DNA of 63,148 nt, taken from Nemertoderma westbladi (lineage: Eukaryota > Animalia > Xenacoelomorpha). Positions 15,212 to 58,435 of this stretch are shown here, one piece after another (the first letter of the stretch is position 1; each line of letters begins with the position of its first letter). The DNA lies in assembly GCA_032718475.1 (NCBI GenBank), contig JAUCBJ010003072.1, positions 1 through 63,148 on the forward strand, written 5' to 3'. The position numbers and the translations under genes are program-made. Under the pieces are notes generated by a model. The model saw only the letters and a list, made by a program, of their open reading frames with translations. It made no database searches and was not told where the DNA came from.

Positions 15212-15775
15212 GGTGAGAAAAGTAAATAGCGTGACCCTGCACCTGTGTGAGACAAGTGAATAGCGTGACCCCGCGCCCTTGTGAGACAAGTGAATAGCGT
15301 GACCCCGCGCTGGGTGTGACAAGTGAATAGCGTGACCCCGCGCCCGGGTGAGCCCAGTGATAGCATGACCCCGCGTCTGGTTGAGACAAGTGAATACCTT
15401 GACCCCGTGCCCGGGTGAGACAAGTGAATAGCGTGACACCGCGCCCGGGTGAGACAAGTGAATACTGTGACCCCGCGCCGGGTGAGACAGTGAATAGCGT
15501 GTGAGTAGCGTATCCCTGCGCCTGGGTGTGACAAGAGAATAGCCTAACCCCACGCCCGGGTGAGACAAGTGAATAGCGTGACCCTGCGCCCGGGTGAGAC
15601 ATGTGAATAGTGTGACACCGCGCCTGGGTCAGACAAGTGAATAGCGTGACCCTGCGTCCGGGTGAGACATGTGAATAGCGTGACACCGCGCCTGGATGAG
15701 ACAAGTGAATTGCGTGAACCTGCGCCCAGGTGAGACATGTGAGTAGCGTAACCCCGCACCTGAGTGTGACAGGTG
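15212..15775. repeat. Satellite A block 1 (34-bp CpG-rich unit)
   Basis: GCGTGACCCCGCGCCCGGGTGAGACAAGTGAATA tandem copies. Confidence 0.95.
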
Positions 15776-16975: not shown

Positions 16976-17030
16976 AAGGTGGCAGCAACACATCGGCCCA
17001 CTCCCTCGTGGCTATGAATTGGCCATCCCA

Positions 17031-22345: not shown

Positions 22346-22364
22346 GCAGAATGGTCTGAAAGAG

Positions 22365-24651: not shown

Positions 24652-25955
24652 ACAATAACCACAACTGGACTGGTCTTAGAAGGGGAGACATTTATTAATT
24701 TGTGGATTGTGTATGTATAGAAGAGGATAAAATATTCCAGAACACAAGTGGCACAGCATTCACAAAAACCACAATTGGACTGATCTTGGAAGTGGAAACA
24801 TTTATTATAATTGGTGGATTGTTTAGAAGATGATAAAATATTCCAGAACACAAGTGGCACAGCCTACACAATAACCACAATTGGACTGGGCTTGAAAGAG
24901 GAGACATTTATTAATTTGTGGATTGTATGTATAGAAGATTATAAAATATTCCAGAACACAAGTGGCACAGCCTACACAATAACCACAACTGGACTGGGCT
25001 TGAAAGAGGAGACATTTATTAATTTGTGGATTGTATGTATAGAAGATGATAAAATATTCCAGAACACAAGTGGCACAGCCTACACAATAACCACAACTGG
25101 ACTGGGCTTGAAAGAGGAGACATTTATTAATTTGTGGATTGTATGTATAGAAGATGATAAAATATTCCGGAACACAAGTGGCACAGCATACACAATAACC
25201 ACTAAGTGGACTGGTCTTGAAAGAGGAGACATTTATTAATTTGTAGATTGTATAGAAGAGGATAAAATATTCCAGAACGCAGGTGGCACAGCATACACAA
25301 TAACCACAAGTGGACTGATCTTGAACGAGGAAACATTATTAACTGTAAATTGTATGAAAGAGGTTAAAATATTCCAGAACACAGGTGGCACAGCATACAC
25401 AATAACCATAAGTGGACTGGTCTTGAACGAGGAAACATTATTAATGGTAGATTGTATGAAAGAGGTTAAAATATACCAGAACGCAGGTGGCACAGCATAC
25501 ACAATAACCATAAGTGGACTGGTCTTGAACGAGGAAACATTATTAACTGTAAATTGTATGAAAGAGGTTAAAATATTCCAGAACGCGGGTGGCACAGCAT
25601 ACACAATAACCATAAGTGGACTGGTCTTAGAAGGGGAGACATTATTAATGGTAGATTGCATAGAATATGATAAAATATTCTAGAACACAGATGGCACAGC
25701 ATACACAATAACCACAACTGGACTGGTCTTGAACGAGGAAAGATTATTAATGGTAGATTGTATGAAAGAGGTTAAAATATTCCAGAACACAGGTGGCACA
25801 GCATACACAATAACCACTAAGTGGACTGGTCTTGGATGAGGAAACATTTATTAATTTGTAGATTGTATAGAAGAGGATAAAATATTACAGAACACAGGTG
25901 GCACAGCATACACAATAACCACAAGTAGACTGGGTCTAGAAAAGGACACATCATT
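24652..25955. repeat. Satellite C block 2
   Basis: 102-110 bp variants of the satellite C unit. Confidence 0.93.
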
Positions 25956-26574
25956 AATTGGCCGGACACACATACAGCATTTTGTACTAATTTTACAACT
26001 TGACAAGCCGGCATACAAATCTCATGTTGGTTTTATTACTATTTTTTTATATTTCTTTTCTATTTTATGTTTGGTTATTTAAGTTATATTTTTATTCTTT
26101 ATTATTATTTATTTCTATATATATATATAATTTATTGACTTGTGGCAATAACAAAATGATCACTAGAACCCCGAAAATGAAACAAATGATATTAACAACT
26201 GCAAAATCATAATAATTAATTTAGAGTACATTAATAGCTTTAATCTGCCTTAAGTCCAGATATATTGTCATAAAAGTCGGGCTCATAAAAAATATTAAAA
26301 CAACTTAAAAAAAATAACTGCCAATTAATTGATATAACTATATATATATATACATAAATATTCATAATTAATAAAGTGTTTAGAATATTTAAGTAGGCCT
26401 AAATATCAAAATATGAATAACCAGTAAGAAAATAATAAACTTATAGAACAATATTTTAAATAACAAGTGGCGAAACGTTAAATTTCCTTATATATACCTA
26501 AAATATTTCAGAACCCAAGTATGGCACAGCATACACAATAACCAAATGTGGAATGAATGCTCTTGAAAGATGAT

Positions 26575-27295
26575 ACGCGCCTGGGTGAGACGTGAAAAGC
26601 ATTACCTCGCGCCCGGGTGAGACAGGTGAAATGCGTGATCCCGCGCCTGGGTTAGACAGGTGTAATGCGTGACCCCGCGCCCGGGTGAGACAGGTGAAAT
26701 GCGTGATCCCGCGCCCGGGTTAGACAGGTGTAATGCGTGACCCCGCGCCCGGGTGAGACAGGTGAAATGCGTGACCCCGCGCCCGGGTTAGACAGGTGTA
26801 ATGCGTGACCCCGCGCCCGGGTGAGTTAGGTGAAAAGCGTAACACTGCGTCCGGGTTAGACAGGTAAAATGCGTGATTCCCCGCCCGGGTTAGACAGGTG
26901 AAAAGCGTGACCCGGCGCCCGGGTTAGACAGGTAAAATGCGTGACCCCGCGCCCGGGTTAGACAGGTGAAAAGCGTGACCCCGCGCCCGGGTTAGACAGG
27001 TGAACAGCGCGACCCCACGCCCGGGTGAGTTAGGTGAAAAGCGTGACCCCGCGCCCGGTTTAGACAGGTGAAATGCGTGACCCCGCGCCCGGGTGAGACA
27101 GGTGAACAGAGTGACCCCGCGCCCGGGTGAGTTAGGTGAAAAGCGTGACCCCGCGCCCGGTTTAGACAGGTGAACTGCGTGACCCCGCGCCCGGGTGAGA
27201 CAGGTGAACAGCGTGACCCCGCGCCTGGGTGAGTTAGGTGAAAAGCGTGACCCGCGCCCGGGTTAGACAGGTGAACAGCGTGACCCCGCGATCTG
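26575..27295. repeat. Satellite A block 2 (34-bp unit)
   Basis: GCGTGACCCCGCGCCCGGGTTAGACAGGTGAAAA tandem copies, about 21. Confidence 0.95.
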
Positions 27296-27444
27296 GAGAG
27301 GAAGGTACCCCATTGCATGCACAATCTGTTTACAATGTTTATTTCAGACTGGTACTAAAAAATAATCACATACAAAGCTGACATATCAGAAAACTAAAGT
27401 GGAACTTTTGAATAAGTTATAAGAAATTATATTAACAAACATTT

Positions 27445-28615
27445 ATATATCATTAATAACTATTTCATGGATACCATATTTCGAGTTCTTAACTAAATCA
27501 GACTACAGTAGTACAACTAATAATCAAAATTAATATAACAATTAACTGAAATATAGCTATATGATACTATAATGGCTGATAATCTTTTTGTTATACACAT
27601 ATTATAATTATCGCCTATTATAACCAACTGCCGGAAATAAGGATAACTTTATTATATCTATTGTGGTGCAGCTAAATATATAAATTAATATTTGACATTC
27701 ATATTTATCACATCAATTGAGATACCCGTTTCAAGTAAGAACTATAAAGCGATTAACTTAATTTCACATTTCAGAGAAATTATATATTACATTGCTATAT
27801 CAGAATAATTTTGAAATCTACACATTGAAATGTGTAATTCATGAAAGAATAGATTTTGAATAAAGTAATGTTTAAATAAGATATATCAACTAGTATGTCA
27901 TTTATTCTGACATATAATATGACTTGCCACGATCTCACAAGGTTAACATTGCTAGGTGCATTGCCACCCCATCAACCACCCCACCCACCTGTCACAAGAA
28001 ATGAAATGAAATGAATGTTACAACCACGACAATGCACCCCAATGAAAACCCTGCATATTGCAAGGTGCACCCTGACCACCAATAGGTGCACCCCAATATT
28101 AAAATAATACTTTCCTTGTTTTTTTTCTAATAATATAATATATTTTTCATATAATATGAAAATAACTGATAATATATTTCAACAACATAGGATTATGTTA
28201 ACTATTAGCTATCTACATAGCATTTGACATTAAATATAACTGGGTACTTTTATATTCGGCCATAGCAATTGTAATTTCACTAAAATCTGAAATTGTATTA
28301 ATCATTTTAGAGTTCTTGCTTGAAAAGGGTATCTGAATTAATGTGATGAAAATATAAATTACAAATAGTTATTGATATAAAGAGCTGCACTATAATAGGT
28401 ATAATAAAGTTACCTTTATTTTAGGCAGTTGGTTAATATAGGCAGTTTATATAATATGTATATAACAAAAATATTTCTAATCATTTATAATATCATAGAC
28501 CTATAATTAAGTTAATTGCTATATTAAAAAGGATGATTAGTTATACTACGGTGTACTGATTTAGTTAAGAACTCGAATTAAATTATCTATAAAATAGTTA
28601 TTAATTATATATTAC
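27445..28615. repeat. Long diverged inverted repeat (foldback), ~350-bp arms
   Basis: TTCGAGTTCTTAACTAAATCAG (27480-27501) is the exact reverse complement of 28556-28577. TAACCAACTGCC/GGCAGTTGGTTA and GATACCCGTTTCAAGTAAGAACT/AGTTCTTGCTTGAAAAGGGTATC continue the pairing inward. Confidence 0.85.
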
Positions 28616-29737
28616 TGATTTTTAATATAATCTATTTTGCCAAATAAAAATAGGCAGCATAATGAAGAATTTACAGTATGTTCATTACAAAAACGTAAAA
28701 AATATTGCCGTTAATGGGAAAGCATACAGTGATATCCTGATTCCATAAAATATGACAGCATTATATGAAAGTGTAATACCATATGTGATTACAGAACACT
28801 TTGAGGTGGTCGGTCATTGTCATATGTACCATAAAATTATACAGTTATAATTATTAAATATAATGAATGAAATATGAATGAATAAATGTGAAATAAATAT
28901 AAATACTATCATAACGCTGTATACCTAATAATATATCTAAGCTTAATACTAATTAATTTATTTAGAAATGTAATTATTTTAATATTTTTAATATTATTTA
29001 TTATATGTATTATTTTGAATTTTTAATAGGATAATTAATATATCATATACGCATAAATTGTACAATAATTACATCACAAATTACATACTGACAAGTAGTA
29101 GGCTACAAATGATTATGGTTGTATTGGAAGTATTATGAAATATTGGGCCAATGCGAGTATGGAAATATAACACATAAGAAACGTAAACAGGGAATACTGC
29201 ATATATGGTAATTGAATTGCAAAATAATGGGAAGTTGTACCAACACATTGATATTATTGCGCTTAAATAATTTATAACTACGTAAAGTAAAAGTTATTAA
29301 TCAATATGGCTCAGAATAAATAATCTTCATATGACCGTGTTTGTGACAGTAATAGATACAATTTTCGTGACATTATTGTTTCCATTATATCTATTGTCAT
29401 TCATTACCAGATATCAATCATCATTGCCATATTGTACTAGTAGTAAGTGTGTGCATGCAAGCAAAGGACTTTATTTTTGGATCTTCTTTTTTTCTTTAAA
29501 ATTATTTATAAAATGTATTATAATATAAAAGATTTAAAGTAATTATGTATTATAGATATTATTTATTTTATTATTTTATTATTATAGACATTTTATATTT
29601 CGTAATAATATATGACAAAGATGCCATAACTAACTATTAAGATATATAATAATTGAATAATGGATAATGTGTTTATTTAATATAGTTAATAGAATCAAAT
29701 TAGAGATATATAGATATAACTAGATTATATGAACTAG

Positions 29738-30860
29738 GGCAAAACTTTAAAGTGGAGCAAATGGATTGTGGTACTTCATACATGGCAAAATGTTAAAGTG
29801 GAGGAAAGTTATTCAGGCATGAAGTGGCAAAGTATTCTACACAAGTAAGGGCAAACATACACTCACCTCATACATGGCAAAATGTTAAAGTGGAGGAAAG
29901 TTATTCAGGCATGAAGTGGCAAAGTATTCTACACAAGTAAGGGCAAACATACACTCACCTCATACATGGCAAAATGTTAAAGTGGAGGAAAGTTATTCAG
30001 GCATGAAGTGGCAAAGTATTCTACACAAGTAAGGGCAAACATACACTCACCTCATACATGGCAAAATGTTAAAGTGGAGGAAAGTTATTCAGGCATGAAG
30101 TGGCAAAGTATTCTACACAAGTAAGGGCAAACATACACTCACCTCATACATGGCAAAATGTTAAAGTGGAGGAAAGTTATTCAGGCATGAAGTGGCAAAG
30201 TATTCTACACAAGTAAGGGCAAACATACACTCACCTCATACATGGCAAAATGTTAAAGTGGAGGAAAGTTATTCAGGCATGAAGTGGCAAAGTATTCTAC
30301 ACAAGTAAGGGCAAACATACACTCACCTCATACATGGCAAAATGTTAAAGTGGAGGAAAGTTATTCAGGCATGAAGTGGCAAAGTATTCTACACAAGTAA
30401 GGGCAAACATACACTCACCTCATACATGGCAAAATGTTAAAGTGGAGGAAAGTTATTCAGGCATGAAGTGGCAAAGTATTCTACACAAGTAAGGGCAAAC
30501 ATACACTCACCTCATACATGGCAAAATGTTAAAGTGGAGGAAAGTTATTCAGGCATGAAGTGGCAAAGTATTCTACACAAGTAAGGGCAAACATACACTC
30601 ACCTCATACATGGCAAAATGTTAAAGTGGAGGAAAGTTATTCAGGCATGAAGTGGCAAAGTATTCTACACAAAGTAAGGGCAAACATACACTCACCTCAT
30701 ACATGACAAAATGTTAAAGTGGAGGAAAGTTATTGAGGCATGAAGTGGCAAAGTATTCCACACAAGTACGGGCAAACATACGCTCTCCTCATATATGGCA
30801 AAATATGAAAGTGGAGCAAAATGGATTGTGGTATGAATTGACAAAGCATTCTGCAGATGT
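29738..30860. repeat. Satellite B block 3 (92-bp variant, ~11 near-identical copies)
   Basis: CATGGCAAAATGTTAAAGTGGAGGAAAGTTATTCAGG... recurs every 92 bp and ends ~140 bp from the RepHel stop codon. Confidence 0.95.
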
Positions 30861-31000
30861 ACAGGTAAACAAACATTCCCTCAGACTAGGGTAAAGATTA
30901 TATGGTTGATGAAAGTACAGATTTTGTTATTACTTGGCAAAGCATCCAGAGGAATGGGAGAATTGGAAAGGTAAATTTTCGGAGATATTATGAATTAAAG

Positions 31001-34000
31001 TTATCCACCAGGTGCGTCATCTTCAAACTCAACATTTCCTGATCGCGCTGGATTTGAGAGAGATCCACACTTGTGGACAACTAAAGAGGTTCGATGCAGT
31101 CTATTATATTCTGCAACAATACTAATTAATTGATTTAGGACGTATTGAGGTCCGCTGTATCGACGAATATTTCTATGAATGAATCTCTCTACATCCATTC
31201 GTCGTGCAGTTCTTTCTTCTTCAGCCTCCGAAGGAAATTGGCAAATGTAGGCAAAGATTGCCCACGGATGGAACTCGGTTCGGTTGGTAAATATGGAACC
31301 ATTTCCGCTATTGTGTTCGCGTAATCTAGTCAACATACTCCTACCTGTTTGACCTATATAGCTTATGGATGGATGCACAGTTGATATTAGCATATACACA
31401 TAACCAGTCTCTGATTCAGGAATTTCTCTGTAAAATGGCCGTAGAGGGTGTTGAACGTCAGTAATAACTCGTTGTGGGTTAGTATTATGGATATCGAGAG
31501 CTGTTAAACGTTCTTCAATAGGACCAGCCCACATTGATGTACGTGATAATGTTTCAGCCAATGCCTGACGTGTCTCTGCTCTGGGTCCAACAAAATATAA
31601 ATACTGGAATGCAGGTACTCGTGAAATTAGAACTAAAAGCTGCTCTCTCTCCCAGAGCCTAAATATCCGTTCTGATGATGAAATTTGAGTTGCAGCTATA
31701 GGGCAAGTTTCACCCATTATTCGATGTATTGTATTTGCAATAAAGTATCGAAGGGGATATTGAGTTCTTCGACCTTGAAGCAGTTGAACCCCAACTATTG
31801 ATGGTATGGTCGTAGTGCGCCCCAATGAAACTCGTTGCCATGAAGCTAGAACTGGCAATAAATTCCGTACCCCTGGTGGAACCAGTGCTACAGTTACCAG
31901 GGCATATTCATTAAACTCTTCAGGGATGTTCTGCACAATGGCAACTTGACCTTGGGAGTATTGGGTGTTCCCTTGTTGGTGGTTGCGGGTCAACCTAGTG
32001 ATGGCACCTTCGAACAGTACCAACTCTTCCGGCTCCAAACAATGACGGTTCAACTGTTGCGTCACATATGTACTAGCTGGAGCCCAATCATAGTGGTGTT
32101 GTACTTCATCTTTTGATTTAGATACGACAGTACGAGTATTCCTATCTGAGGTCTTTCTTTGTAGGAATTCTTTAACCACTTTTGCCTCTGCCTTTCGTGA
32201 TCCTACTATTCGCATGGCTTCTTGGGGTACATCACTCCATGTATTAACAAATTTGGCTTTTGCCATTATGGTGTTTAGAATCTCAATTTGCTGTGATGGT
32301 GAAATTACTGTCTGCCTCATTGATTCCAAGCAATTTTGGAGATTCATATCCGAGGCTGCACGTACATAATGTTTTAGCTGAATTACCTGGAAGGAAGTTA
32401 TAAGGTTTGTTGACATAAATATGGGCCGTCCATCAATTGGAGGCAGTTGATGTTGGTCGCCATTCATTATGAGCAGTTTACCACCAAATGGTAGATCATT
32501 ATTCATGATATTCTTCATTGTGGTATCTAGAATACCATAAAATTCCGCCGAGATTAGCCCTACTTCTTCCAATATAAAGACATTAGTACGTTTCAATAAG
32601 ATTAGTTTCATTGGGTCTTTCTTAAGACTTTGTATACATTGTCTTGCAAGAATATGGGGATGTGCATGTTTCAAACTCTTACTTGGGACGGGAAATGCAA
32701 TATGTATGTGGAATCCCCCAAGTGTTCTCGAACGTTCACTTGTCAGTGAAAGAAGGGCAGTATTGAGACCCAGTGATATGACATACAAGGTCGCAATTTG
32801 TATGAGCAAAGTCTTGCCACAACCTGGTGGTCCAGTTATCAGTAAAAACTTGGGTAATTGATTAGTGGATGGATTTAAAAATTTGTGGACAACTTGTTTT
32901 ATGGTTTGCAGTGCATTGTTTTGCTCCATTTGGGAAGCCATCGATTGGTGTGCTGCTGTAGGCAGTTCGGGATCCCAAATTAAGGGATTATCAAATGTGG
33001 CCTCCATAAAAGCTTCAGTTGTTGGGAGGTGCATCTTCGTGATAAGATCGCTATGGTTTGTTTCCACCAAATACAATTTCCGCGATCTTTCGATTGTATA
33101 GATACGCTCTGATGTTTCTTCACGAAGAGCTATGTATGATACCGAAGGGACATCACAAGATATACGTCCTTCTGACATAAGGATGTCGTCTATAGCGGAT
33201 TTAGCATTGTTCAAGTATTGCTCAAACTGTTTTGCACCAAAACAAAACGTCTGAAGTTGCTCATCAACATATCTTCTGAGTATATTGTTTGCCTCATCCT
33301 GAGTTGGATTAATGTGGTCAATGACTAGGCCTGCTTTCTGGAATGCCATTGGAAATGATATGACTTCCATTACATCTAATTCTGTTATGAATTGGCCGAG
33401 AGTTAATATGATATGGTACAGAAATTTTATACGATGACTTGCACCTATGTTGGGTATAACAGCAATGGTTTCCTTGCTATAATATACAAAACGTTTGTGG
33501 AGACTGCCATCAATATCTTCTATTTGGATTTCATTAAGAAGATTTAATATGTCATTCTTCCCCTCTTTCTCTGGCTGACTTTGTATGAAGTTGATGGCCC
33601 TGGTAATTGCACAGCTGCGTATTTTAACTTGATTGTTGAGGCCATCTATCCATGGCTGCTGGTGAATATCATCATTTACATTATGTGATGGCAATTTGCT
33701 CTTGATGACAAAGATTTCATGATAGTCAATTAGCTTATTTACTATGGAAATTTCAGGAGGGCGTATATTAAACCGCTCAGTATTACCAAGTTTATAATTT
33801 GATGAGACATACTCATGTATAAGCCTTCGTTGGTTGTGGGAGAAGTGACGCCATTGAGGAAGATTGATCCTAGTTTCTATGCTGGCAATATAGGAACCAT
33901 ATGAACCATCAATCTGTTCATTTGATTTATTTGCTGAAACAGCTGAGCGATACTCAGGGGGAAGAGTGCTAATATGAATAAAATCTGCGGTACATCGTGT

Positions 34001-37000
34001 GTATGGATACCCAAGCGCAAATCTGGCTAGCTCTGGTATTCCAATCTCACGAGAATTTGTTGCTTTCTCTTTCTCAATGGTTTGGTTTATTTTAACCCCA
34101 GATATTTTAACATTTTCCTGTTCCCCAACTTCTGTTCTTACTACATCAGGGTTCTTTGTACCAAACACCTTTATTTGCCTCCTCTCCTCTATGCCACCTA
34201 TATATTTGCATAAATAGGAGCTGGAAAATTTTCGGTCTGTAACCTGACAATTAAAAGAGCTCCTCAGGGTTAAGGCGATTTCGGCAATGGTTGGTAAATA
34301 TGTTGGAGGGCTTCTTGTTGAGTAATGATAACGGCCTGCCGTTAGACTTGGAGCCAGTACCCATTCCAACTGGTATTCTTTGTTTAAAACTCTCTGAGCA
34401 AGTCCAATCTCCTCTAGTATCGTATATATTTCTTTTGAATAAAGATCTTTCTTTACTTGAAACCAATTAGAGGAACTTGTTGGATGTGACGGTACCCTGC
34501 AGATTTTATTACCATCTTTATCTTTTCTTTTGTGACACCTTTCAGAAGCTGCTTTACAGTTATGTATTGTTACCATTTCTACTATGCTTTTAGCTTCATG
34601 GAAATCCTCCCACGAGTCCACAATTCCAGCATCCAATAAGTTGTGGAAGTCTTCCGGTCCAAAAGGCAGACGGTCAGGATCACATGTTACACGGCCCATG
34701 GTGGTCTGTATTGGTTCTGGGAATAGGGAAATGCCTCCATGGAAATGGCACTTGTTTCCCCTAGCTCCCTGGTCCTGAAACTCAGCACGGGCAAACATAT
34801 GGTGTACTGGACCGAGCCTTTCTTCGGGACTAGTTTCAATGTAGTCCATCATATACTGTGCCACTCGTTCCCATGCCCTGCAAATGAGTACCACATTGGC
34901 ATCATAAATGTTACTATATTCAGAATAAGTTTCTTCACAAAAATCTTTCATTGAATTAATGATTGGTGCAAGTCCCATAGTCGAACTCTCATTAGCTGTT
35001 ATAGTAAAAAAGTACGACCATGGATATTTGTTAATGAGAGCTGCCAGTTCTTTAACAACTCTGCTACTATTCGATTCTTCGAATTCTAGTGGTGTGTCAT
35101 GGATATCCACTTTTGTTGCACGTGATTCATCAAGGAATTCTAAGCCACGATTAAAAAATACAGAAGATGGGCGGTGATTTAACTTCATATTTATGCGCAT
35201 ATCTGCAACCCAGTGGAGGTAGTTCAAATCATGGGAGGTCGATAAATCACCATCTCGCAATCTAATCATTAACATATCTTTGTTAGACGACACGTTGTGG
35301 CATGATTTATTAGATGTTGCCTCTTTCATTGAGCTAAATATATGGTGAGGTATTGCACCTACAGTTGATCCATTATGGTTATACCAGAATGTTGTGGGAA
35401 ATATATTTCCTTCTGGGTATAATAAAGAAGTTGATGGAGCAGAATTCTTGGCAATAATTTCATTTAGTAGCTGTGCTTTCTTAGCACTTGGGTGTTTTGA
35501 AAGTTCTCGGTGAAGTATTCCATAAACATCGTTAAGGAGACAGTGGCTTGGAAAACGCTGCGCTCCAGTAACAGGGAACAGTTGTTTTCTACTATTTGCA
35601 GAAGATGGTATATCTCCTGATGGGAGAGTGTTTTCATCTGTCAAGAAGTTCTGAAGATCTTCCAAATACTCCCAATCTGAGTCTTCCTCTGCATTTTCAG
35701 GAATCACTATACCAGAATTGTCATATTCTTCATCGATTTGATGTTCATTATCAATGTTGATGTCGAGTAAGAGTTCCTCCAATTCTGCATCAGAATCTAT
35801 TTCCCCTTGATTAAGATATGCTGTTTGGTTGTCAAATAGTGGAGTTTGGTGATACCTGATTGTGATTGTTGTGGCATCACTAATGGAATACATTCGGAAA
35901 TGCTTGAGGCATACAGCTACAAGGCAATGGTATGATAATATTCCATAAGGACAGCGATGGTTTGCAGGTTTGCGACATCTTGCAACTGCACATTTGGCAT
36001 GGGACACTCTGGGCTCATTTATTAGATGTAGACCATGTTTTCCACAGGATATACGCCGTTGGCCACCTAGAGATCTTTTAATGATATCATCACGATGTTC
36101 ATTGGTATTGGTATTGATGTATAAGGCCAGTCGCCATGTATGGAACCAGGATGTTTTGTTGCAAGCTGTTGTTGCTATTCTATTGCCTCCTTTCCCAATA
36201 CTCCAAAACCGCATATTTGGCTCCCAGCGGAAAATAATTGAGTCTTCTTTGTCCTCTGTTAATACCAACATCAGGCTAAATTCCCCAATTCGGGTTTTTG
36301 GTTGAATCCCTGGAGAAGCAGTGTTTTGGCATATCACTAATTCATATAAGTCAGAACGAGTCTCAGAACGGCTTACTATCTGGTCACATGTTCGTAATGC
36401 TGACTTATTAGATAGCCGAAGCAGTAACTTAATAACTTTGTCTATAAATGGAGCTTCTGAACTTCTTAATAAACAAGGATCCTTGGCAATTTTGTCAAAT
36501 ACAACATTTATGTTGCAGGATTTTGATGGTTTGTTTAATCCTGATAATGTAGCCACTGCAGCAAGTACCCATCCCAAGAAATTATCATTCTCTGATATAT
36601 ACTTTTCAAGACAAAGCTGGTGGATCCTTCGGTTGAGGAGCAGGATGGTGGTAATGGCATTTCCAAGGGAATCATGAATACAAGAAATGTTTACTTTAAA
36701 GGGGTGAGCCCCAAAATCATTCATTGGATGAACTATAGATAATGTGAGGTTTTCTGCCCGAAACAGGTATTTGACATTGGTATTTTGAGTCTCCTGTTTT
36801 TCATTTTGGACTCGACATATTTTCCAGATATGAAAGGAATCACCAATGGAAATATAAGATCCACCATCAAGACATTTCTTAAGATCGTCACCTTGAGGTG
36901 TCATTCCGCTGTTCTCTAGACCACTTAGTTTCGATCTTACTATATTACTAGCACCTCCCCATGTGCTATTGAGATATGTTTCCCGTATGTCATCTCTATA

Positions 37001-39712
37001 TTTCAGACATAACCCCTCTCTCAGTATCTGCTGCTGACCAATTGGAGGAAGATCAATTTCAGAAGCCCCGAGAGTAAATGTCGACAGTCCATGATAACCA
37101 CCAATGCAGTTGATGACATAGTTAGAGCTGTTCCACTTATTCAGTCGACCCTGTCTAACAACATTTGGAGACAAAGTTGCAGGAGCAAACACTTCAACAG
37201 ATTGAACAGCACCATCTTCATAAAATGGATTTGTTTGTAAATGAATGACTTGTTGTTTCATTGATTTATGGTCTTCGCAGACCAACACAGATAGTCCTTC
37301 TTTCTTATCTAAAACAATGCCTGGAGTGATGTTCCACTTTAAAAGATACTGACGTGGGCATTGTGGCCAGTCTGATCTGGCTGAACGGAAGTTCTCCCTG
37401 TTTGATTGAGGGAGTGTCACAATGTTTGCATATGCTAGGTAATCCAGAAAAGATACGTTTTTGCACTTATCAATCCACTGCCAACAACCGAGCGGACACT
37501 TAACTTCAGGGAAGCATTCCCTATTCATGGCTTTCCTGAGTCCACCCAATGTATTAGCTTTAATATCTTGTTTGAATTCCCGGAGTTGTGGTGTGAAATC
37601 TCTAAATGTTGGTATCCCTGATCGAGGTAAAGAGAATGAAGACCACATCTCTTGTATATTTGTGGGTAGTTGTTTCCACAGTTCTATATGTTTATCTTGT
37701 GGCATTAATGAAACTGATGACAGACATGAATATAATACAGCTGGCCACATTACATTCCAATTGCTACGTATTTCAGTTTTGTTTTGGTTTAAGTAGGAAT
37801 TGCACTGTGCACAGCATACAGGAAGTGAGTATTGTCTTCTCTGCACTAAACTGCCATATTTCTTACCTTTACAAGATCCTCTTGTGGCAACTTCAATGTC
37901 ATATATAGCAGTAGAATGACGTTGACAACATTCACATAGCAATGTCATATTTACAGCCAATGGAGTTGTAGTTGGTGCTGCCAGATTTGTAGTTGGTTGT
38001 TCTGTTGAGGATATATTTTGTTGTACTGAAGATGTAGTTGGATGAACTTGAGTTGGAGGGTTCTGAGTGTGACCATTATTTGGTGGATGATTTGGGTTTA
38101 TGGTATTTGGCTGTGGTGATATTCTTCCTGGAAGGTTACCAAATGTACTGGGTCGATTACAATGTGGTGGACGATGATATGAAGAACCTGCATTCTGAGA
38201 TTGGTTTTGTGTGGTCGATTGTTGTCTGGAATTGGAAGTTGATGGTTGAAAATTTCCTGTTGAACTCTGAGGGTGCTGAGTATGCGGTATGAAATTACTA
38301 TCATCACCTGTTCCAGGTAGCAGTGCAGCAAAATGACCGGGCCAGTGGGCAATGTAAATAACGTCTGGGCTATTGCCAAAGTGCAGAACGCCTCTAGTTT
38401 CCGTTGATATCAAACAGATAGATGCCGGCAGATGAATTGCAAGTGACATTATATTTAATTCCGTTCCCCATTCTCCTCCTCTTGTTGCCAAAATAAAATT
38501 ATTAAAATTATTTGCAGGTCGTGGATACATACCTGCTATTTCAGCATTTGTTGGAACAAGGAAACGGTTTGAATATGGGAGAGGGTTTCTAGCCATCTCA
38601 TTAGCAGAGAGGTTGCGTAGGGATGCCACAGTATAGTGCCGGTTGAAATTAAGCAAGTCTAAACCTTGCAATATAGAGTAGTATAGACAATCTCCACCAC
38701 CTTGATTGGGTTGGATATGAAGCCCATTTAATTGACAGGTTGTATCTAGCCATTCTTGTGGAGGAATATTATTTGAGCCCTGCAGTACAATAAATTGCGT
38801 TCTTGATGGCCCTGTCCTACTCTGGTTCTGGCCCCCCTCTCTGGCTGTTTCTTCCTGTTGTGTACCTGGGTCTACCTGAAGTTCAGGAGGTGTTCCTTCT
38901 CTTCTTCTCCTTCGTTGACCTCCTTGGCTATCCTGACCCCGTTTTCTTCCACTTCGATGTACCTCCTCCCAATCTCCCTGATCCTCATGATGCTGTTCCT
39001 CCCCAATATCCATCCGTTCCTCATGTTGCTGTTCCACTCCTTGACCTTCCTCCCCATTATCCATCCGTTCCTCATGTTGCTGTTCCACCCCTTGACCTTC
39101 CTCCCCATTATCCATCCGTTCCTCCTGTTGCTGTTCCACGCCTTGACCTCCCTCTCCATTATCCATCCGTTCCTCCTGTGGCTGTTCCACCCCTTGACCT
39201 TCCTCCCCATTATCCATCCGTTCCTCCTGTTGCTGTTCCACCCCTTGACCTTCCTCCCCATTATCCATCCGTTCCTCCTGTTGCTGTTCCACGCCTTGAC
39301 CTCCCTCTCCATTATCCATCCGTTCCTCCTGTGGCTGTTCCACCCCTTGACCTTCCTCCCCATTATCCATCCGTTCCTCCTGTTGCTGTTCCACACCTTG
39401 ACCTCCCTCCCCATTATCGATCCGTTCCTCATGTTGCTGTTCCACGCCTTGACCTTCCTCTCCATTATCCATCCGTTCCTCCCCTTGATGCCCCTCCCCC
39501 TGTTCAATCTGTTCTTCCTGGGGCTCTTCATCCATTTGAGATCCCTCTTCATTTGTCATTCGTTCCTCCGCGTTTTCTTCCTTCCCTTGAGGTTGCTCAA
39601 TCCGTTCCACTTTTTCCATTAGAGGAGCGTGTATTTCCTTCCATACAGAACATGTTCTAATATTATGATTTGAGCTTCCACACTTACTGCACTTTTGTTT
39701 TCTTTTAGCCAT
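31001..39712 (-). CDS. Helitron-like Rep-helicase polyprotein: Zn knuckle, OTU protease, HUH Rep, PIF1-like helicase, GIY-YIG nuclease
   Basis: Uninterrupted 2903 aa. CSKCGSSNHNIRTC knuckle; OTU GGGDCLYYS..WGTELNI..GHF (~38320-38730); HUH motifs YFFTIT (~35000), EFQ..CHFHG (~34760), YLCKY (~34210); helicase GPPGCGKT (~32820), FGGKLLIMNGDQHQLPPI, TIHRIMGET, QLLVLISRV; GIY-YIG GYVYML..SYIGQT..RLREHNSG (~31300-31410). Confidence 0.93.
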   Translation of the reverse strand: MAKRKQKCSKCGSSNHNIRTCSVWKEIHAPLMEKVERIEQPQGKEENAEERMTNEEGSQMDEEPQEEQIEQGEGHQGEERMDNGEEGQGVEQQHEERIDNGEGGQGVEQQQEERMDNGEEGQGVEQPQEERMDNGEGGQGVEQQQEERMDNGEEGQGVEQQQEERMDNGEEGQGVEQPQEERMDNGEGGQGVEQQQEERMDNGEEGQGVEQQHEERMDNGEEGQGVEQQHEERMDIGEEQHHEDQGDWEEVHRSGRKRGQDSQGGQRRRRREGTPPELQVDPGTQQEETAREGGQNQSRTGPSRTQFIVLQGSNNIPPQEWLDTTCQLNGLHIQPNQGGGDCLYYSILQGLDLLNFNRHYTVASLRNLSANEMARNPLPYSNRFLVPTNAEIAGMYPRPANNFNNFILATRGGEWGTELNIMSLAIHLPASICLISTETRGVLHFGNSPDVIYIAHWPGHFAALLPGTGDDSNFIPHTQHPQSSTGNFQPSTSNSRQQSTTQNQSQNAGSSYHRPPHCNRPSTFGNLPGRISPQPNTINPNHPPNNGHTQNPPTQVHPTTSSVQQNISSTEQPTTNLAAPTTTPLAVNMTLLCECCQRHSTAIYDIEVATRGSCKGKKYGSLVQRRQYSLPVCCAQCNSYLNQNKTEIRSNWNVMWPAVLYSCLSSVSLMPQDKHIELWKQLPTNIQEMWSSFSLPRSGIPTFRDFTPQLREFKQDIKANTLGGLRKAMNRECFPEVKCPLGCWQWIDKCKNVSFLDYLAYANIVTLPQSNRENFRSARSDWPQCPRQYLLKWNITPGIVLDKKEGLSVLVCEDHKSMKQQVIHLQTNPFYEDGAVQSVEVFAPATLSPNVVRQGRLNKWNSSNYVINCIGGYHGLSTFTLGASEIDLPPIGQQQILREGLCLKYRDDIRETYLNSTWGGASNIVRSKLSGLENSGMTPQGDDLKKCLDGGSYISIGDSFHIWKICRVQNEKQETQNTNVKYLFRAENLTLSIVHPMNDFGAHPFKVNISCIHDSLGNAITTILLLNRRIHQLCLEKYISENDNFLGWVLAAVATLSGLNKPSKSCNINVVFDKIAKDPCLLRSSEAPFIDKVIKLLLRLSNKSALRTCDQIVSRSETRSDLYELVICQNTASPGIQPKTRIGEFSLMLVLTEDKEDSIIFRWEPNMRFWSIGKGGNRIATTACNKTSWFHTWRLALYINTNTNEHRDDIIKRSLGGQRRISCGKHGLHLINEPRVSHAKCAVARCRKPANHRCPYGILSYHCLVAVCLKHFRMYSISDATTITIRYHQTPLFDNQTAYLNQGEIDSDAELEELLLDINIDNEHQIDEEYDNSGIVIPENAEEDSDWEYLEDLQNFLTDENTLPSGDIPSSANSRKQLFPVTGAQRFPSHCLLNDVYGILHRELSKHPSAKKAQLLNEIIAKNSAPSTSLLYPEGNIFPTTFWYNHNGSTVGAIPHHIFSSMKEATSNKSCHNVSSNKDMLMIRLRDGDLSTSHDLNYLHWVADMRINMKLNHRPSSVFFNRGLEFLDESRATKVDIHDTPLEFEESNSSRVVKELAALINKYPWSYFFTITANESSTMGLAPIINSMKDFCEETYSEYSNIYDANVVLICRAWERVAQYMMDYIETSPEERLGPVHHMFARAEFQDQGARGNKCHFHGGISLFPEPIQTTMGRVTCDPDRLPFGPEDFHNLLDAGIVDSWEDFHEAKSIVEMVTIHNCKAASERCHKRKDKDGNKICRVPSHPTSSSNWFQVKKDLYSKEIYTILEEIGLAQRVLNKEYQLEWVLAPSLTAGRYHYSTRSPPTYLPTIAEIALTLRSSFNCQVTDRKFSSSYLCKYIGGIEERRQIKVFGTKNPDVVRTEVGEQENVKISGVKINQTIEKEKATNSREIGIPELARFALGYPYTRCTADFIHISTLPPEYRSAVSANKSNEQIDGSYGSYIASIETRINLPQWRHFSHNQRRLIHEYVSSNYKLGNTERFNIRPPEISIVNKLIDYHEIFVIKSKLPSHNVNDDIHQQPWIDGLNNQVKIRSCAITRAINFIQSQPEKEGKNDILNLLNEIQIEDIDGSLHKRFVYYSKETIAVIPNIGASHRIKFLYHIILTLGQFITELDVMEVISFPMAFQKAGLVIDHINPTQDEANNILRRYVDEQLQTFCFGAKQFEQYLNNAKSAIDDILMSEGRISCDVPSVSYIALREETSERIYTIERSRKLYLVETNHSDLITKMHLPTTEAFMEATFDNPLIWDPELPTAAHQSMASQMEQNNALQTIKQVVHKFLNPSTNQLPKFLLITGPPGCGKTLLIQIATLYVISLGLNTALLSLTSERSRTLGGFHIHIAFPVPSKSLKHAHPHILARQCIQSLKKDPMKLILLKRTNVFILEEVGLISAEFYGILDTTMKNIMNNDLPFGGKLLIMNGDQHQLPPIDGRPIFMSTNLITSFQVIQLKHYVRAASDMNLQNCLESMRQTVISPSQQIEILNTIMAKAKFVNTWSDVPQEAMRIVGSRKAEAKVVKEFLQRKTSDRNTRTVVSKSKDEVQHHYDWAPASTYVTQQLNRHCLEPEELVLFEGAITRLTRNHQQGNTQYSQGQVAIVQNIPEEFNEYALVTVALVPPGVRNLLPVLASWQRVSLGRTTTIPSIVGVQLLQGRRTQYPLRYFIANTIHRIMGETCPIAATQISSSERIFRLWEREQLLVLISRVPAFQYLYFVGPRAETRQALAETLSRTSMWAGPIEERLTALDIHNTNPQRVITDVQHPLRPFYREIPESETGYVYMLISTVHPSISYIGQTGRSMLTRLREHNSGNGSIFTNRTEFHPWAIFAYICQFPSEAEEERTARRMDVERFIHRNIRRYSGPQYVLNQLISIVAEYNRLHRTSLVVHKCGSLSNPARSGNVEFEDDAPGG
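38992..39481 (-). repeat. Coding 51-bp tandem repeat (EERMDNGEEGQGVEQQQ, ~9.5 copies) inside the RepHel N-terminus
   Basis: Directly visible in the translation; frame-preserving. Confidence 0.95.
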
Positions 39713-40090
39713 TTTTTACGAAATGTTATATTCTATTCTAACTGCGTTTTCTCGTGCCTTGTAAACTTGAAAGTGAGTTTACCAGTTAATACAATATAAT
39801 ACATAATAGTTAAATTAAATTATTATACATACCTGATAATTGCTTCGAGATTCCTATATATGCTGTGTTAATTGGTTGTAAGTTGGTAACTCACTATTTA
39901 TTCCTCATGCTCTTCTTTAAAGCGCATCTCAATACATGTAACATTTTCATTCTGTAGAATATAATGAATTCGTTAAAAATTTTGTATAAATTGTAAAACG
40001 AAACATATTTTTTTATTTTAAACATATTTAATTCCAAACCACTTTACCATCTACTGTAAGCATGCTCCATATGCCGGTACTGTTCATCCC

Positions 40091-43000
40091 TATTGAGTTC
40101 CAACATCTTTATTACACCGACTGAGTACCACCCCAAACACAATTATAGAGTTATACATCTCTATAACGCCCACTGAGTACCACACCAAACACAATTATTG
40201 AGATCCAACTTCTCTATAACGCCCACTGAGTACCACACCAAACACAATTATTGAGTTACAACATCTCTATAACGCCCTCTGAGTACCACACCAAACACAA
40301 TTATTGAGTTATACATCTCTATAACGCCCACTGAGTACCACACCAAACACAATTATTGAGATCCAACTTCTCTATAACGCCCACTGAGTACCACACCAAA
40401 CACAATTATTGAGATCCAACATCTCTATAACGCCCTCTGAGTACCACACCAAACACAATTATTGAGTTATACATCTCTATAACGCCCACTGAGTACCACA
40501 CCAAACACAATTATTGAGATCCAACATCTCTATAACGCCCTCTGAGTACCACACCAAACACAATTATTGAGTTATACATCTCTATAACGCCCACTGGAGT
40601 ACAAAAACCAAACACAATTATTGAGTTCCAAAATCTCTATAACGCCCACTGAGTATACCACACCAAACACAATTATTGAGTTCCAACATCTCTATAACGC
40701 CCACTGAGTACCACACCAAACAAAATTATTGAGATCCAACATCTCTATAGAGCCCACTGAGTACCACACCAAACACAATTATTGAGATCCAACATCTCTA
40801 TAACGCCCTCTGAGTACCACACCAAACACAATTATTGAGTTATACATCTCTATAACGCCCACTGAGTACCACACCAAACACAATTATTGAGATCCAACAT
40901 CTCTATAACGCCCTCTGAGTACCACACCAAACACAATTATTGAGTTATACATCTCTATAACGCCCACTGGAGTACAAAAACCAAACACAATTATAGAGTT
41001 CCAATATATCTATAACGCCCACTGAGTACCACACCAAACACAACTATTGAGATCCAACATCTCTATAACGCCCACTGATTACCACTCCAAACACAATTAT
41101 TGAGTTCCAACATCTCTATAACGCCCACTGAGTACCACACCAAACACAATTATTGAGTTCTACATCTCTATAACAACCAATCAGTACCACAAACCAAACA
41201 CAATTATTGAGTTACAACATCTCTATAACGCCCACTGGAGTACAAAAACCGTCCACTGAGTACCACACCAAACACAATTATTGAGTTCTACATCTCTATA
41301 ACAACCAATCAGTACCACAAACCAAACACAATTATTGAGTTACAACATCTCTATAACGCCCACTGGAGTACAAAAACCAAACACAATTATTGAGTTCCAA
41401 TATCTCTATAACGCCCATTGAGTACCACACCAAACACAATTATTGAGTTCTACATCTCTATAACAACCAATCAGCACCACAAACCAAACACAATTATTGA
41501 GAAACAACATCTCTATAACGCCCACTGGAGTACAAAAACCAAACACAATTATTGAGTTCTAACATCTCTATAACGCCCACTGAGTACCACACCAAACACA
41601 ATTATTGAGTTCCAACATCTCTATAACGCACACTGAGTACCACACCAAACACAATTATTGAGTTCCAACATCTCTATATCGCCCACTGAGTACCACACCA
41701 AACACAATTATTGAGTTCCAACATCTCGATAACGCCCACTGAGTACCACACCAAACACAATTATTGAGTTCTACATCTCTATGACAACCAATCAGTACCA
41801 CAAACCAAACACAATTATTGAGAACCAACATCTCTATAACGCCCACTTATTACCACTCCAAACACAATTATTGAGATCCAACATCTATATAACGCCCACT
41901 GAGTATAGCACTCCAAACACAATTATTGAGTTCCAACATCTATATAACGCCCACTGAGTACCACACCAAACACAACTATTGAGATCCAACATCTCTATAA
42001 CGCCCACTGATTACCACTCCAAACACAATTATTGAGTTCTAACATCTCTATAACGCCCACTGAGTATACCACACCAAACACAATTATTGAGTTCCCATAT
42101 CTCTATAACGTCCACTGAGTACCACACCAAACACAACTGTTGCGATCCAACATCTCTATAACGCCCACTGATTACCACTCCAAACAGAATTATTGAGTTC
42201 CAACATCTCTTTAACGCCCACTGATTACCACTCCAAACAGAATTATTGAGTTCCAAGATCTATATAACGCCCACTGAGTATACCACTCCAAGCACAATTA
42301 TTGAGTTCCAACATCTCTATAACGCCCACTGAGTACCACACCAAACACAATTATTGAGTTCCAACATCTCTATAACGCCCACTGAGTACCACAACAAACA
42401 CATTATTGAGTTATACATCTCTATAACGCCCACTGATTACCACACCAAACACAATTATTGAGTTATACATCTCTATAACGCCCACTGATTACCACTCCAA
42501 ACAGAATTATTGAGTTCCAACATCTCTTTAACGCCCACTGATTACCACTCCAAACAGAATTATTGAGTTCCAAGATCTATATAACGCCCACTGAGTACCA
42601 CACCAAACACAACTGTTGCGATCCAACATCTCTATAACGCCCACTGATTACCACACCAAACACAATTATTGAGTTATACATCTCTATAACAACCAATCAG
42701 TACCACACTCCAAACACAATTATTGAGTTCCAACATCTCTATAATACCCACTGATTACCACTCCAAACACAATTATTGAGTTCCAAGATCTATATAACGC
42801 CTCTGAGTGTACCACTCCAAACACAATTATTGAGTTCCAACATCTCTATTACGCCCAGTGAGTACCACATCAAACACAATTATTGAGTTCCAACATCTCT
42901 ATAACGCCCACTGAGTACCACACCAAACACAATTATTGAGTTATACATCTCTATAACAAACAATCAGTACCACAAACCAAACACAATTATTGAGTTACAA

Positions 43001-46000
43001 CATCTCTATAACGCCCACTGAGTACCACACCAAACACAACTGTTGCGATCCAACATCTCTATAACGCCCACTGATTACCTCTCCAATCACAACTATTGAG
43101 TTCCAACATCTCTTTAACGCCCACTGAGTACCACACCAAACACAATTATTGAGTTCTAACATCTCTATAACGCCCACTGAGTATACCACACCAAACACAA
43201 TTATTGAGTTCCCATATCTCTATAACGCCCACTGAGTACTACACCAAACACAACTGTTGCGATCCAACATCTCTATAACGCCCACTGATTACCACTGCAA
43301 ACACAATTATTGAGTTCTAACATCTCTATAACGCCCACTGAGTATACCACACCAAACACAATTATTGAGTTACAACATCTCTATAACGCCCACTGAGTAC
43401 CACACCAAACACAACTGTTGCGATCCAACATCTCTATAACGCCCACTGATTACCTCTCCAATCACAACTATTGAGTTCCAACATCTCTTTAACGCCCACT
43501 GAGTACCACACCAAACACAATTATTGAGTTCTAACATCTCTATAACGCCCACTGAGTATACCACACCAACACAATTATTGAGTTCCCATATCTCTATAAC
43601 GCCCACTGAGTACTACACCAAACACAACTGTTGCGATCCAACATCTCTATAACGCCCACTGATTACCACTGCAAACACAATTATTGAGTTCTAACATCTC
43701 TATAACGCCCACTGAGTATACCACTCCAAACACAATTATTGAGTTCTAACATCTCTATAACGCCCACTGATTACCTCTCCAATCACAACTATTGAGTTCC
43801 AACATCTCTTTAACGCCCACTGAGTACCACACCAAACACAATTATTGAGTTCCAACATCTCTATAACGCCCACTGATTACCTCTCCAATCACAACTATTG
43901 AGTTCCAACATCTCTTTAACGCCCACTGAGTACCACACCAAACACAATTATTGAGTTCTAACATCTCTATAACGCCCACTGAGTATACCACACCAACACA
44001 ATTATTGAGTTCCCATATCTCTATAACGCCCACTGAGTACTACACCAAACACAACTGTTGCGATCCAACATCTCTATAACGCCCACTGAGTACCACACCA
44101 AACACAATTATTGAGTTCCCATATCTCTATAACGCCCACTGAGTACTACACCAAACACAACTGTTGCGATCCAACATCTCTATAACGCCCACTGATTACC
44201 ACTGCAAACACAATTATTGAGTTCTAACATCTCTATAACGCCCACTGAGTATACCACTCCAAACACAATTATTGAGTTCTAACATCTCTATAACGCCCAC
44301 TGAGTATACCACACCAAACACAATTATTGAGTTCCAACATCTCTATAACGCCCACTGATTACCTCTCCAATCACAACTATTGAGTTCCAACATCTCTTTA
44401 ACGCCCACTGAGTACCACACCAAACACAACTATTGAGATCCAACATCTCTATAACGCCCACTGATTACCACTCCAAACACAATTATTGAGTTCCAACATC
44501 TCTATAACGCCCACTGAGTACCACACCAAACACAATTATTGAGTTCTACATCTCTATAACAACCAATCAGTACCACAAACCAAACACAATTATTGAGTTA
44601 CAACATCTCTATAACGCCCACTGGAGTACAAAAACCGTCCACTGAGTACCACACCAAACACAATTATTGAGTTCTACATCTCTATAACAACCAATCAGTA
44701 CCACAAACCAAACACAATTATTGAGTTACAACATCTCTATAACGCCCACTGGAGTACAAAAACCAAACACAATTATTGAGTTCCAATATCTCTATAACGC
44801 CCATTGAGTACCACACCAAACACAATTATTGAGTTCTACATCTCTATAACAACCAATCAGCACCACAAACCAAACACAATTATTGAGAAACAACATCTCT
44901 ATAACGCCCACTGGAGTACAAAAACCAAACACAATTATTGAGTTCTAACATCTCTATAACGCCCACTGAGTACCACACCAAACACAATTATTGAGTTCCA
45001 ACATCTCTATAACGCACACTGAGTACCACACCAAACACAATTATTGAGTTCCAACATCTCTATATCGCCCACTGAGTACCACACCAAACACAATTATTGA
45101 GTTCCAACATCTCGATAACGCCCACTGAGTACCACACCAAACACAATTATTGAGTTCTACATCTCTATGACAACCAATCAGTACCACAAACCAAACACAA
45201 TTATTGAGAACCAACATCTCTATAACGCCCACTTATTACCACTCCAAACACAATTATTGAGATCCAACATCTATATAACGCCCACTGAGTATAGCACTCC
45301 AAACACAATTATTGAGTTCCAACATCTATATAACGCCCACTGAGTACCACACCAAACACAACTATTGAGATCCAACATCTCTATAACGCCCACTGATTAC
45401 CACTCCAAACACAATTATTGAGTTCTAACATCTCTATAACGCCCACTGAGTATACCACACCAAACACAATTATTGAGTTCCCATATCTCTATAACGTCCA
45501 CTGAGTACCACACCAAACACAACTGTTGCGATCCAACATCTCTATAACGCCCACTGATTACCACTCCAAACAGAATTATTGAGTTCCAACATCTCTTTAA
45601 CGCCCACTGATTACCACTCCAAACAGAATTATTGAGTTCCAAGATCTATATAACGCCCACTGAGTATACCACTCCAAGCACAATTATTGAGTTCCAACAT
45701 CTCTATAACGCCCACTGAGTACCACACCAAACACAATTATTGAGTTCCAACATCTCTATAACGCCCACTGAGTACCACAACAAACACATTATTGAGTTAT
45801 ACATCTCTATAACGCCCACTGATTACCACACCAAACACAATTATTGAGTTATACATCTCTATAACGCCCACTGATTACCACTCCAAACAGAATTATTGAG
45901 TTCCAACATCTCTTTAACGCCCACTGATTACCACTCCAAACAGAATTATTGAGTTCCAAGATCTATATAACGCCCACTGAGTACCACACCAAACACAACT

Positions 46001-53880: not shown

Positions 53881-53942
53881 TAGCCAATAGCGATCCTTAA
53901 AGGAGATGCACCATTGGCTACCCAGGATGGCAACCAATCACA
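53881..53942. promoter_or_regulatory. Cluster of three CCAAT boxes, candidate promoter
   Basis: CCAAT 53884, ATTGG 53913 and CCAAT 53934 within 60 bp. Confidence 0.35.
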
Positions 53943-58306: not shown

Positions 58307-58435
58307 GATTCTTATTTGTAGTGGTTCTGTTGTGTTGGAAATAATGTTGTAACACAATTTTAAGTTTGTTCCTATCGGATAGTATCAGCGAGTGTTATGA
58401 AATCATTAATCTGTGATGTTGATCGTTTTCAATAC

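Follow-up and report, generated by a model that had tools for sequence, protein, structure and literature searches.

A candidate Helitron-like transposase lineage with a C-terminal SLX1-like GIY-YIG domain in Nemertoderma westbladi and other eukaryotes

How Helitrons finish integration and which role the extra nuclease of Helentrons plays are open questions (PMC8788227; what is said of this and the other papers cited by PMC number refers to their available parts). Both questions are raised by a locus in Nemertoderma westbladi, within a stretch of 63,148 nucleotides (GenBank assembly GCA_032718475.1, contig JAUCBJ010003072.1, positions 1–63,148 of the forward strand), hereafter the window. An original prediction, made from the letters alone, placed at 31001–39712 an intact Helitron-like Rep–helicase (RepHel) transposase fused to an N-terminal OTU protease and a C-terminal GIY-YIG nuclease. 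In this study, the affiliation of this protein and the possible function of its nuclease were investigated using profile searches, family alignments, predicted structures and metagenome loci.

The stop-free open reading frame (ORF) of the original prediction is real, and the ORF scan places it on the minus strand, which had not been stated. The frame runs from 39715 to 31001 (2,904 residues), and the ATG at 39712 yields a single-exon protein of 2,903 aa. The plus-strand frame over 31001–39712 is full of stops, and the chance probability of 2,903 open codons at the local composition is approximately 1e-83. Residues are numbered on the window protein (P0001) in the stop-to-stop frame, in which the ATG methionine is residue 2, and all features of the ORF given below lie on the minus strand. 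Motif reading and Pfam recovered every motif set named earlier, namely, HUH motifs 1–3, the PIF1 motifs, the OTU Cys/His pair and the GIY-YIG set. The pre-Rep region and HUH Rep domain (34019–35554; alignment and model) contain motif 1 at 34991–35011 (FFTITAN, residue 1569), motif 2 at 34739–34789 (FARAEFQ...GNKCHFH, with histidines H1657/H1659) and motif 3 (YLCKY, 1834–1838), whose tyrosines Y1834/Y1838 are encoded at 34202–34216. A conserved linker with an RPPE motif (32966–34018; alignment and a partial structural alignment to Helraiser) leads to a Pif1-family superfamily 1 helicase (31499–32965; Pfam and alignment) with Walker A (GPPGCGKT, 2295), Walker B (EE, 2383-4) and motifs III–VI, including motif III (GDQHQLPP, 2419) and motif V (TIHRIMGET). 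The SLX1-type GIY-YIG domain (31160–31450; Pfam, profile comparison and alignment) follows with GYVYML at 2771, YIGQT at 2786, RLREHN at 2797 and E2843. The Pfam matches to PIF1 (E 3e-15) and GIY-YIG (E 4e-7) are both over the cut-off. The Rep of P0001 has no Pfam match, and 6 of 19 homologues pass Helitron_like_N. Thus, an HUH Rep with motifs 1–3 and both tyrosines is followed by a Pif1 helicase in one ORF.

The predicted fold of the Rep points to the same affiliation. In the AlphaFold model of residues 1385–2250 (Rep and linker, pLDDT 85), Helraiser (7lcc) was the sole Foldseek match at E<1e-3 (E 5e-7), and an exhaustive VIA-align search returned Helraiser with Z 15.1, a root-mean-square deviation (rmsd) of 4.8 and 426 aligned residues; the next chain scored 5.7. 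The HUH histidines H1657/H1659 are present in 76 of 76 proteins of the family alignment, Y1834 in 75 and Y1838 in 74. The Walker A lysine and Walker B glutamate are invariant in 127 of 127 proteins, and the helicase catalytic motifs are nearly so. We are therefore confident that this is a Helitron-like transposase lineage. Its motif 2 is distinctive. Helitrons of the HLE1 type are diagnosed by RGLPH-type motifs and Helentrons by RGSPH together with F/Y-x-R (Thomas et al. 2014, PMC4067079). Motif 2 of the present family follows EFQ-x(n)-GN-x-[PS]-HxH, and 74 of 76 proteins fit the search pattern; it reads EFQDQGARGNKCHFH in P0001. GN with 7–9 residues between Q and the first H occurs in 68 of these 74 proteins and GN or AN in 69, so that neither the HLE1 form ExQxRGLPHxH nor the Helentron RGSPH describes the family motif. 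The Helentron-type aromatic-x-R ahead of motif 2 is present (F-A-R-A-EFQ in P0001), with the R in 72/74 and W/F/Y two residues before it in 62/74. Judged by sequence, this Rep signature is unlike that of Helitrons or Helentrons and is new here. A Pfam scan of 23 family proteins found DUF6570, PF21530 and AP endonuclease (Exo_endo_phos) in none, PF21530 being present in all three HLE1 proteins. DUF6570 is the HLE2 marker in HELIANO (PMC11417382). The C-terminal AP endonuclease of Helentrons is thus missing, and a GIY-YIG domain is found instead.

The family was retrieved with the last 1,199 residues, including GIY-YIG, as the query against clusters at 50% identity. The exhaustive search gave 346 clusters at E<1e-30, and the counts that follow come from the best 150 of these 346 (153 proteins including the query). 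A complete helicase with at least 100 residues after it was found in 125 of the 153 proteins, and 124 of these 125 carry GIY-YIG; the other 28 end within or soon past the helicase. Since the query itself held GIY-YIG, 36 metagenome loci selected independently, by pre-Rep and linker patterns, were examined as well. Nine of them, representing seven distinct elements, extend past the helicase, and GIY-YIG is present in all nine. In the ESM Atlas, a 50-member cluster shows PIF1 in 98% and GIY-YIG in 88% of members, and the few annotated members of a second cluster (66 members) are mostly diatoms. Named relatives occur in Cyprideis torosa, Styela clava and Myxine glutinosa, the last with three family members. 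Overall identity across the family is approximately 30%, and relatives are named in their source databases only as 'uncharacterized', 'helicase' or 'GIY-YIG endonuclease'. With the patterns used, no relatives were found in viral contigs or prokaryotic genomes, and among phage and plasmid records the only matches were weak ones to the helicase (8 and 2 records, respectively). Separately, 31 loci of small viral contigs (L037–L067) contain a short stand-alone Rep-like ORF with EFQxRGxPHxH, like the Helitron motif 2, and no Walker A.

A FastTree phylogeny of 84 rows, built after the removal of partial proteins and 14 near-duplicates, was rooted with three HLE1 proteins; a motif scan of viral contigs and a long-protein search yielded no HLE2 references. 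A branch of 2.3 substitutions per site divides the family from the HLE1 proteins, and the window protein clusters with P0156, P0006, P0007 and P0008 (support 0.987). On these sequence data, the RepHel–GIY-YIG fusion dates back to the ancestor of a large eukaryotic family whose members have diverged deeply. This corrects the earlier proposal that the present element had itself acquired the nuclease, given the domain in 124/125 proteins and 9/9 loci. The proposed distinct Helitron-like lineage, in which a C-terminal GIY-YIG replaces the Helentron AP endonuclease, is borne out by the Helraiser fold, motif 2 and the near-universal fusion.

The first alternative concerns novelty only, namely, that the lineage is already catalogued as the HelenSM92 type, as a HELIANO unclassified cluster or as a Repbase or Dfam family within HLE2. 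In the literature searched (Repbase, Dfam and subscription journals lay outside the search), only the available part of the HELIANO paper (PMC11417382) mentions GIY-YIG in a Helitron-like element, once in the text and once in the supplement. Both mentions concern HelenSM92, where one HLE2 family alone is said to have captured the domain, and the available parts of PMC6431247, PMC3627910 and PMC8788227 hold no RepHel–GIY-YIG fusion. HelenSM92 is therefore a precedent for a Helitron-like element with GIY-YIG. The same source describes no fewer than four clusters that are unclassified, finds unclassified elements in 19 genomes, and reports UCH in HLE2 subgroups c and d, though listed among separate-ORF domains; these reports and the Helentron-type aromatic-x-R favour prior cataloguing. 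We nevertheless consider it unlikely, because DUF6570 and AP endonuclease are missing from all 23 scanned proteins, motif 2 departs from ExQxRG(S/L)(P/L)HxH, the GIY-YIG mentions are confined to HelenSM92 in what is available of that paper, and the database names of relatives are generic. The lineage is large, apparently unnamed and marked by an SLX1-type nuclease.

The affinity of the nuclease was determined with a family profile built from 32 GIY-YIG sequences. The five best non-helicase PDB matches of this profile all belong to SLX1 (five chains, E 1e-9 to 1e-7), and the best PDB match of the isolated domain is again SLX1; a bacterial UPF0213 protein matches the profile at 2.5e-3. No homing-endonuclease chains are among the PDB matches listed for the domain. 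The approximately 50 residues after the domain contain no Cys-rich RING; SLX1 carries a RING. In SLX1, Arg36 belongs to the active site and Glu79 binds the metal (PMC4407285), and the enzyme cleaves branched DNA (PMC6902002). R2797 aligns to Arg36, E2843 matches Glu79 by position, and the RPW motif of SLX1 reads HPW in the window protein. All five catalytic residues (Y2774, Y2786, R2797, H2801 and E2843) are intact in the window copy, as they are in 95 of 124 family domains. By sequence profile, the domain is SLX1-like. The C-terminal GIY-YIG of the original prediction is thereby confirmed, and the comparison made there with Penelope-like elements and homing endonucleases is corrected to the extent that, among solved structures, SLX1 is the best match.

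The N-terminal part of the protein is larger and more composite than first described; a CCHC knuckle, a 17-aa repeat, two modules rich in Cys and His and a domain of predicted USP fold had been overlooked. The zinc knuckle (C-x2-C-x4-H-x4-C, residues 9–22; 39650–39691, from alignment) is also present in relatives P0007, P0011 and P0100. A repeat scan detected a 51-bp in-frame tandem repeat of 9.5 copies (38996–39482), each encoding a 17-aa unit of an acidic Gln/Glu-rich linker (residues 79–240). The OTU-like cysteine protease domain (residues 328–467; 38315–38734) stays below the Pfam cut-off in P0001 (E 6e-4, 20.7 bits versus 23.3), homologues P0009 and P0156 pass it, and catalytic residues C343 and H461 both align in OTU context. 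OTU is concentrated in the subclade of the window protein (P0001, P0156, P0006, P0007, P0009 and P0011). P0025, P0168 and P0028 match more weakly, and P0030 has a C-terminal fragment of the domain. On sequence grounds, OTU is a predicted deubiquitinase. The family alignment further shows a conserved Cys/His region (C594/C597, C635/C638, C740/C744 and C813/H816; 37016–37963), and a second module (C1224, H1227, C1242, C1247, C1255, C1264, C1269 and H1272; 35900–36067) is predicted to bind zinc.

Between these two modules, residues ~1003–1204 (36104–36709; model structure search and alignment) form a predicted USP/UCH-fold domain. In the AlphaFold model of residues 585–1290 (pLDDT 78), VIA-align matched this part to USP18 with Z 11.0, rmsd 3.6 and 183 aligned residues, and the top 35 rows were all of USP fold. 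Foldseek returned no match at E<1e-3 for the N-terminal model, with USP only at E 0.02, and the ESM Atlas held nothing for this region. No conserved catalytic Cys/His was seen by eye at the USP positions in 37 aligned proteins, so that the domain is probably a pseudo-enzyme, i.e. a catalytically dead USP fold that, on the model, is new here. In one relative (L004:2–6169), an Ulp1/Peptidase_C48 domain is fused after GIY-YIG (E 8e-16). Given the recurrence of OTU, USP fold and Ulp1, an association with ubiquitin/SUMO-protease folds is a family trait. A Cys-containing ORF of 430–570 aa also recurs close to the RepHel-GIY gene in four distinct loci (L002:1183–2622, L009:7388–8728, L011:10095–11372 and L031:7173–8891). 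It has no PDB match and no meaningful Pfam match, and it is absent from the window. In P0035, a homologue of this ORF replaces GIY-YIG (residues 959–1168, fused; hhalign probability 89.7); the ORF is possibly an accessory gene belonging to these elements.

The whole ORF is covered by contigs from three runs of the same organism (two samples), which represent one near-identical lineage and a second at ~83% DNA identity. Forty substitutions were listed (1,291 more were unlisted), 38 of them inside the ORF; of these, 27 fall on the third codon position (p 2e-6) and 26 are synonymous. Relative to the window, divergence is 1.5–3.2% in the near-identical pieces of the ORF and 0.8–1.3% in pieces of the flank, a comparison of the longest listed pieces only, at different likeness thresholds. 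Because the ORF pieces diverge more than the flank, paralogous copies fit better than alleles of a conserved gene. Elsewhere in the family, six intact copies share 98.5–99.5% aa identity in one cluster (P0026/P0159–P0163), on contigs of five different sizes. These copies, the three family members in Myxine glutinosa and the second lineage of the present organism are signs of mobility.

Satellites enclose the gene in the window. Downstream arrays of 92/93, 102 and 34 bp with a duplicated spacer occupy 14993–30945, the 92/93-bp unit extending to 56 bp from the stop codon, and this block is possibly the 3' part of the element. Upstream, an 11-kb satellite of 53 bp (40091–51121) starts ~380 bp before the ATG. 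Helentron elements are reported to carry satellite-like arrays (PMC7492417). Contig depth across 51125–60240 stays at baseline and marks no element boundary, and the metagenome loci include no multi-insertion sets for defining ends. A 1.2-kb insertion resembling a miniature inverted-repeat transposable element, with ~380-bp terminal inverted repeats of 78% identity, lies within the satellite block at 27421–28636.

The whole of the above is probably best read as a distinct, eukaryote-wide lineage of the Helitron superfamily whose GIY-YIG domain likely cuts branched DNA arising from rolling-circle transposition. In Helraiser, the HUH/tyrosine domain cleaves one strand, the helicase displaces it, the donor is resynthesised at a proposed fork, and circle intermediates are formed (PMC5876387). 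By analogy, the two-tyrosine Rep of the present family would nick one donor strand and bind it covalently, the Pif1 helicase would peel the nicked strand off the donor, host synthesis would refill the donor, and the Rep would circularise the strand and then join it to the target. GIY-YIG would trim or resolve whichever flap or fork remains at the donor or the target, helping without being strictly required, and its repeated decay would presumably occur where host nucleases take over. More speculatively, OTU, together with Ulp1 in one relative, may strip ubiquitin/SUMO from the covalent transposase–DNA adduct or from nearby chromatin, and the dead USP fold may be a binding scaffold. Since a Helraiser-like pathway makes flaps and forks, which are SLX1 substrates, a branch-trimming helper is favoured over target nicking or pure binding, and we give this particular role about an even chance.

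Several observations weigh against this reading. At least one catalytic residue is lost in 29 of 124 GIY-YIG domains, including that of the closest relative, P0005, and in view of these degenerate domains catalysis may matter little. The GIY-YIG assignment comes from sequence profiles, the structure models covering residues 585–1290 and 1385–2250. Summed ORF depth is only 1.1–1.9 times that of the flank, a ratio which is not equal to copy number and which suggests few copies, and the six near-identical relative copies may partly be one locus in different assemblies. Hairpin and inverted-repeat scans of the flanks gave chance-level or unrelated matches only, and neither termini nor a hairpin, neither subterminal inverted repeats nor an empty site came to light. 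Elements of the Helitron superfamily have defined termini with a 3' hairpin and make no target-site duplication; HLE1 elements end in 5'-TC ... CTRR-3' and insert at A/T, and Helentrons have subterminal inverted repeats and insert at T/T. No ends of either kind were located here. With low depth and no termini found, the recent activity once read from the intact frame is not borne out at this locus.

According to the original prediction, GIY-YIG perhaps nicks target DNA; it would open the insertion site, as supposed for the AP endonuclease of Helentrons and the GIY-YIG of Penelope. The domain does occupy the position of the Helentron AP endonuclease (PMC4067079), and its catalytic residues are intact in 95/124 domains. 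Against this stand the SLX1 affinity, which is that of a branched-DNA nuclease, and catalytic losses that sit on several separate tree branches, while the Rep and helicase motifs are near-invariant; the decay in 29/124 argues against obligatory nicking. Purified Helraiser, whose catalytic domains are described as Rep and helicase, produces junctions in vitro, and in cells the element is mobilised (PMC5876387). Obligatory nicking is thus doubtful, and target nicking in general is an improbable role.

The same decay can be turned into a different argument, in which GIY-YIG mainly binds DNA structures and thereby guides the transposase to forks or to other branched or single-stranded target sites, cutting being incidental. 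The domain is kept in 124/125 proteins even though 29/124 lack catalytic residues, S2778, N2802, P2817 and F2827 are conserved in more domains (112–118 of 124) than R2797 and E2843 (99 of 124 each), and in P0035 an unrelated accessory protein takes the GIY-YIG position. Five catalytic residues retained in 95/124 domains at ~30% overall identity imply selection on catalysis, and we rate pure binding no higher than target nicking. A branch-trimming helper accommodates residues that are long conserved yet repeatedly lost, a pattern that suggests a nuclease under selection and not indispensable. Finally, the window copy might be a domesticated gene of the host, single-copy and descended from such an element, as the low depth ratio, the lack of termini found, purifying selection and possible splice signals in the 5' untranslated region, read by eye, might suggest. 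We consider this very improbable: the 8.7-kb ORF is intronless and embedded in satellites, all its transposition motifs are intact, the organism also has a second, diverged lineage, and divergence is higher in the ORF pieces than in the non-coding flank.

The remaining features of the window are recorded here as observations. Upstream of the ATG, 39758–39951 on the minus strand holds a possible spliced 5' untranslated region (exon ~39951–39833 and a 75-nt intron, by eye). Short dispersed repeats of very high depth occur from ~51268 onward and at 54583–54635, and a 32-bp satellite at 60250–63148 runs off the window end. A 1.46-kb (ACCT)n microsatellite (13197–14659) adjoins a short tRNA-like stretch at ~14720–14750, seen by eye. 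An intronless 902-aa coiled-coil ORF with an N-terminal DUF4485 (3015–5723, minus strand), which we take to be CEP112-like, is possibly a retrogene or a single-exon host gene. A CFAP95 coding exon lies at 8015–8611 on the plus strand (Pfam E 1.5e-23); together with the DUF4485 sequence, it points to a eukaryotic and probably animal host. A short minus-strand ORF at 508–939 with a weak DUF6451 match presumably resembles the tail of a non-LTR (long terminal repeat) retroelement ORF.

A large transposon group may thus be hidden under annotation labels such as 'uncharacterized' or 'helicase'. The small, separable SLX1-type nuclease and its natural catalytically dead versions make the question of the extra nuclease directly testable, and the intact near-identical copies in relatives are a candidate second active rolling-circle system beside Helraiser. 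Somewhat short of an even chance, in our estimate, is the bolder possibility of a third major Helitron branch in addition to HLE1 and HLE2, of old origin and with members among animals as well as protists. Its defining features would be a nuclease of SLX1 type that resolves branched DNA, an N-terminus with pseudo-USP and zinc modules and a distinct Rep motif, and tools trained on HLE1/HLE2 would largely miss it. If true, such a branch would be a transposon with its own resolvase for replication intermediates, in which ubiquitin/SUMO proteases were repeatedly recruited to shield the covalent DNA adduct.

Two other element types were compared and rejected: a Penelope-like retroelement, as Pfam finds no reverse transcriptase domain in the ORF, and a Replitron, which has an HUH Rep without a helicase, as a helicase is present. 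Helentrons (HLE2) share with the present family the zinc-finger-like N-terminus, Rep, Pif1 helicase and C-terminal extra nuclease (PMC4067079), as well as the OTU association and the aromatic-x-R before motif 2. They differ in that their extra nuclease is APE and not an SLX1-type GIY-YIG, and that their motif 2 is xRGSP with 5 residues from Q to H, against GN with 7–9 (68/74) here. The family further lacks DUF6570 (0/23), unlike HLE2, and carries, unlike Helentrons, a predicted pseudo-USP in the same ORF; subterminal inverted repeats were not found in the flank scans. With HLE1 and Helraiser (7lcc), the family shares the predicted Rep and linker fold (Z 15.1), the YxxxY tyrosines and the Pif1 helicase, and most members share the HLE1 motif 1 F-x-T-x-T-C-N, at ~13% identity between Helraiser and the window Rep in structural alignment. 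Compared with HLE1, the N-terminus is much larger, a C-terminal nuclease is added and PF21530 is missing. HelenSM92, an HLE2 element of Sphagnum compared here by its description only (PMC11417382), is another Helitron-like element with GIY-YIG. SLX1 and UPF0213 share with the window domain the series Y...YIG.T...R...HN...RPW...[GQ]F...E and differ from it in context, the window domain being part of a mobile element in which it is joined to a helicase.

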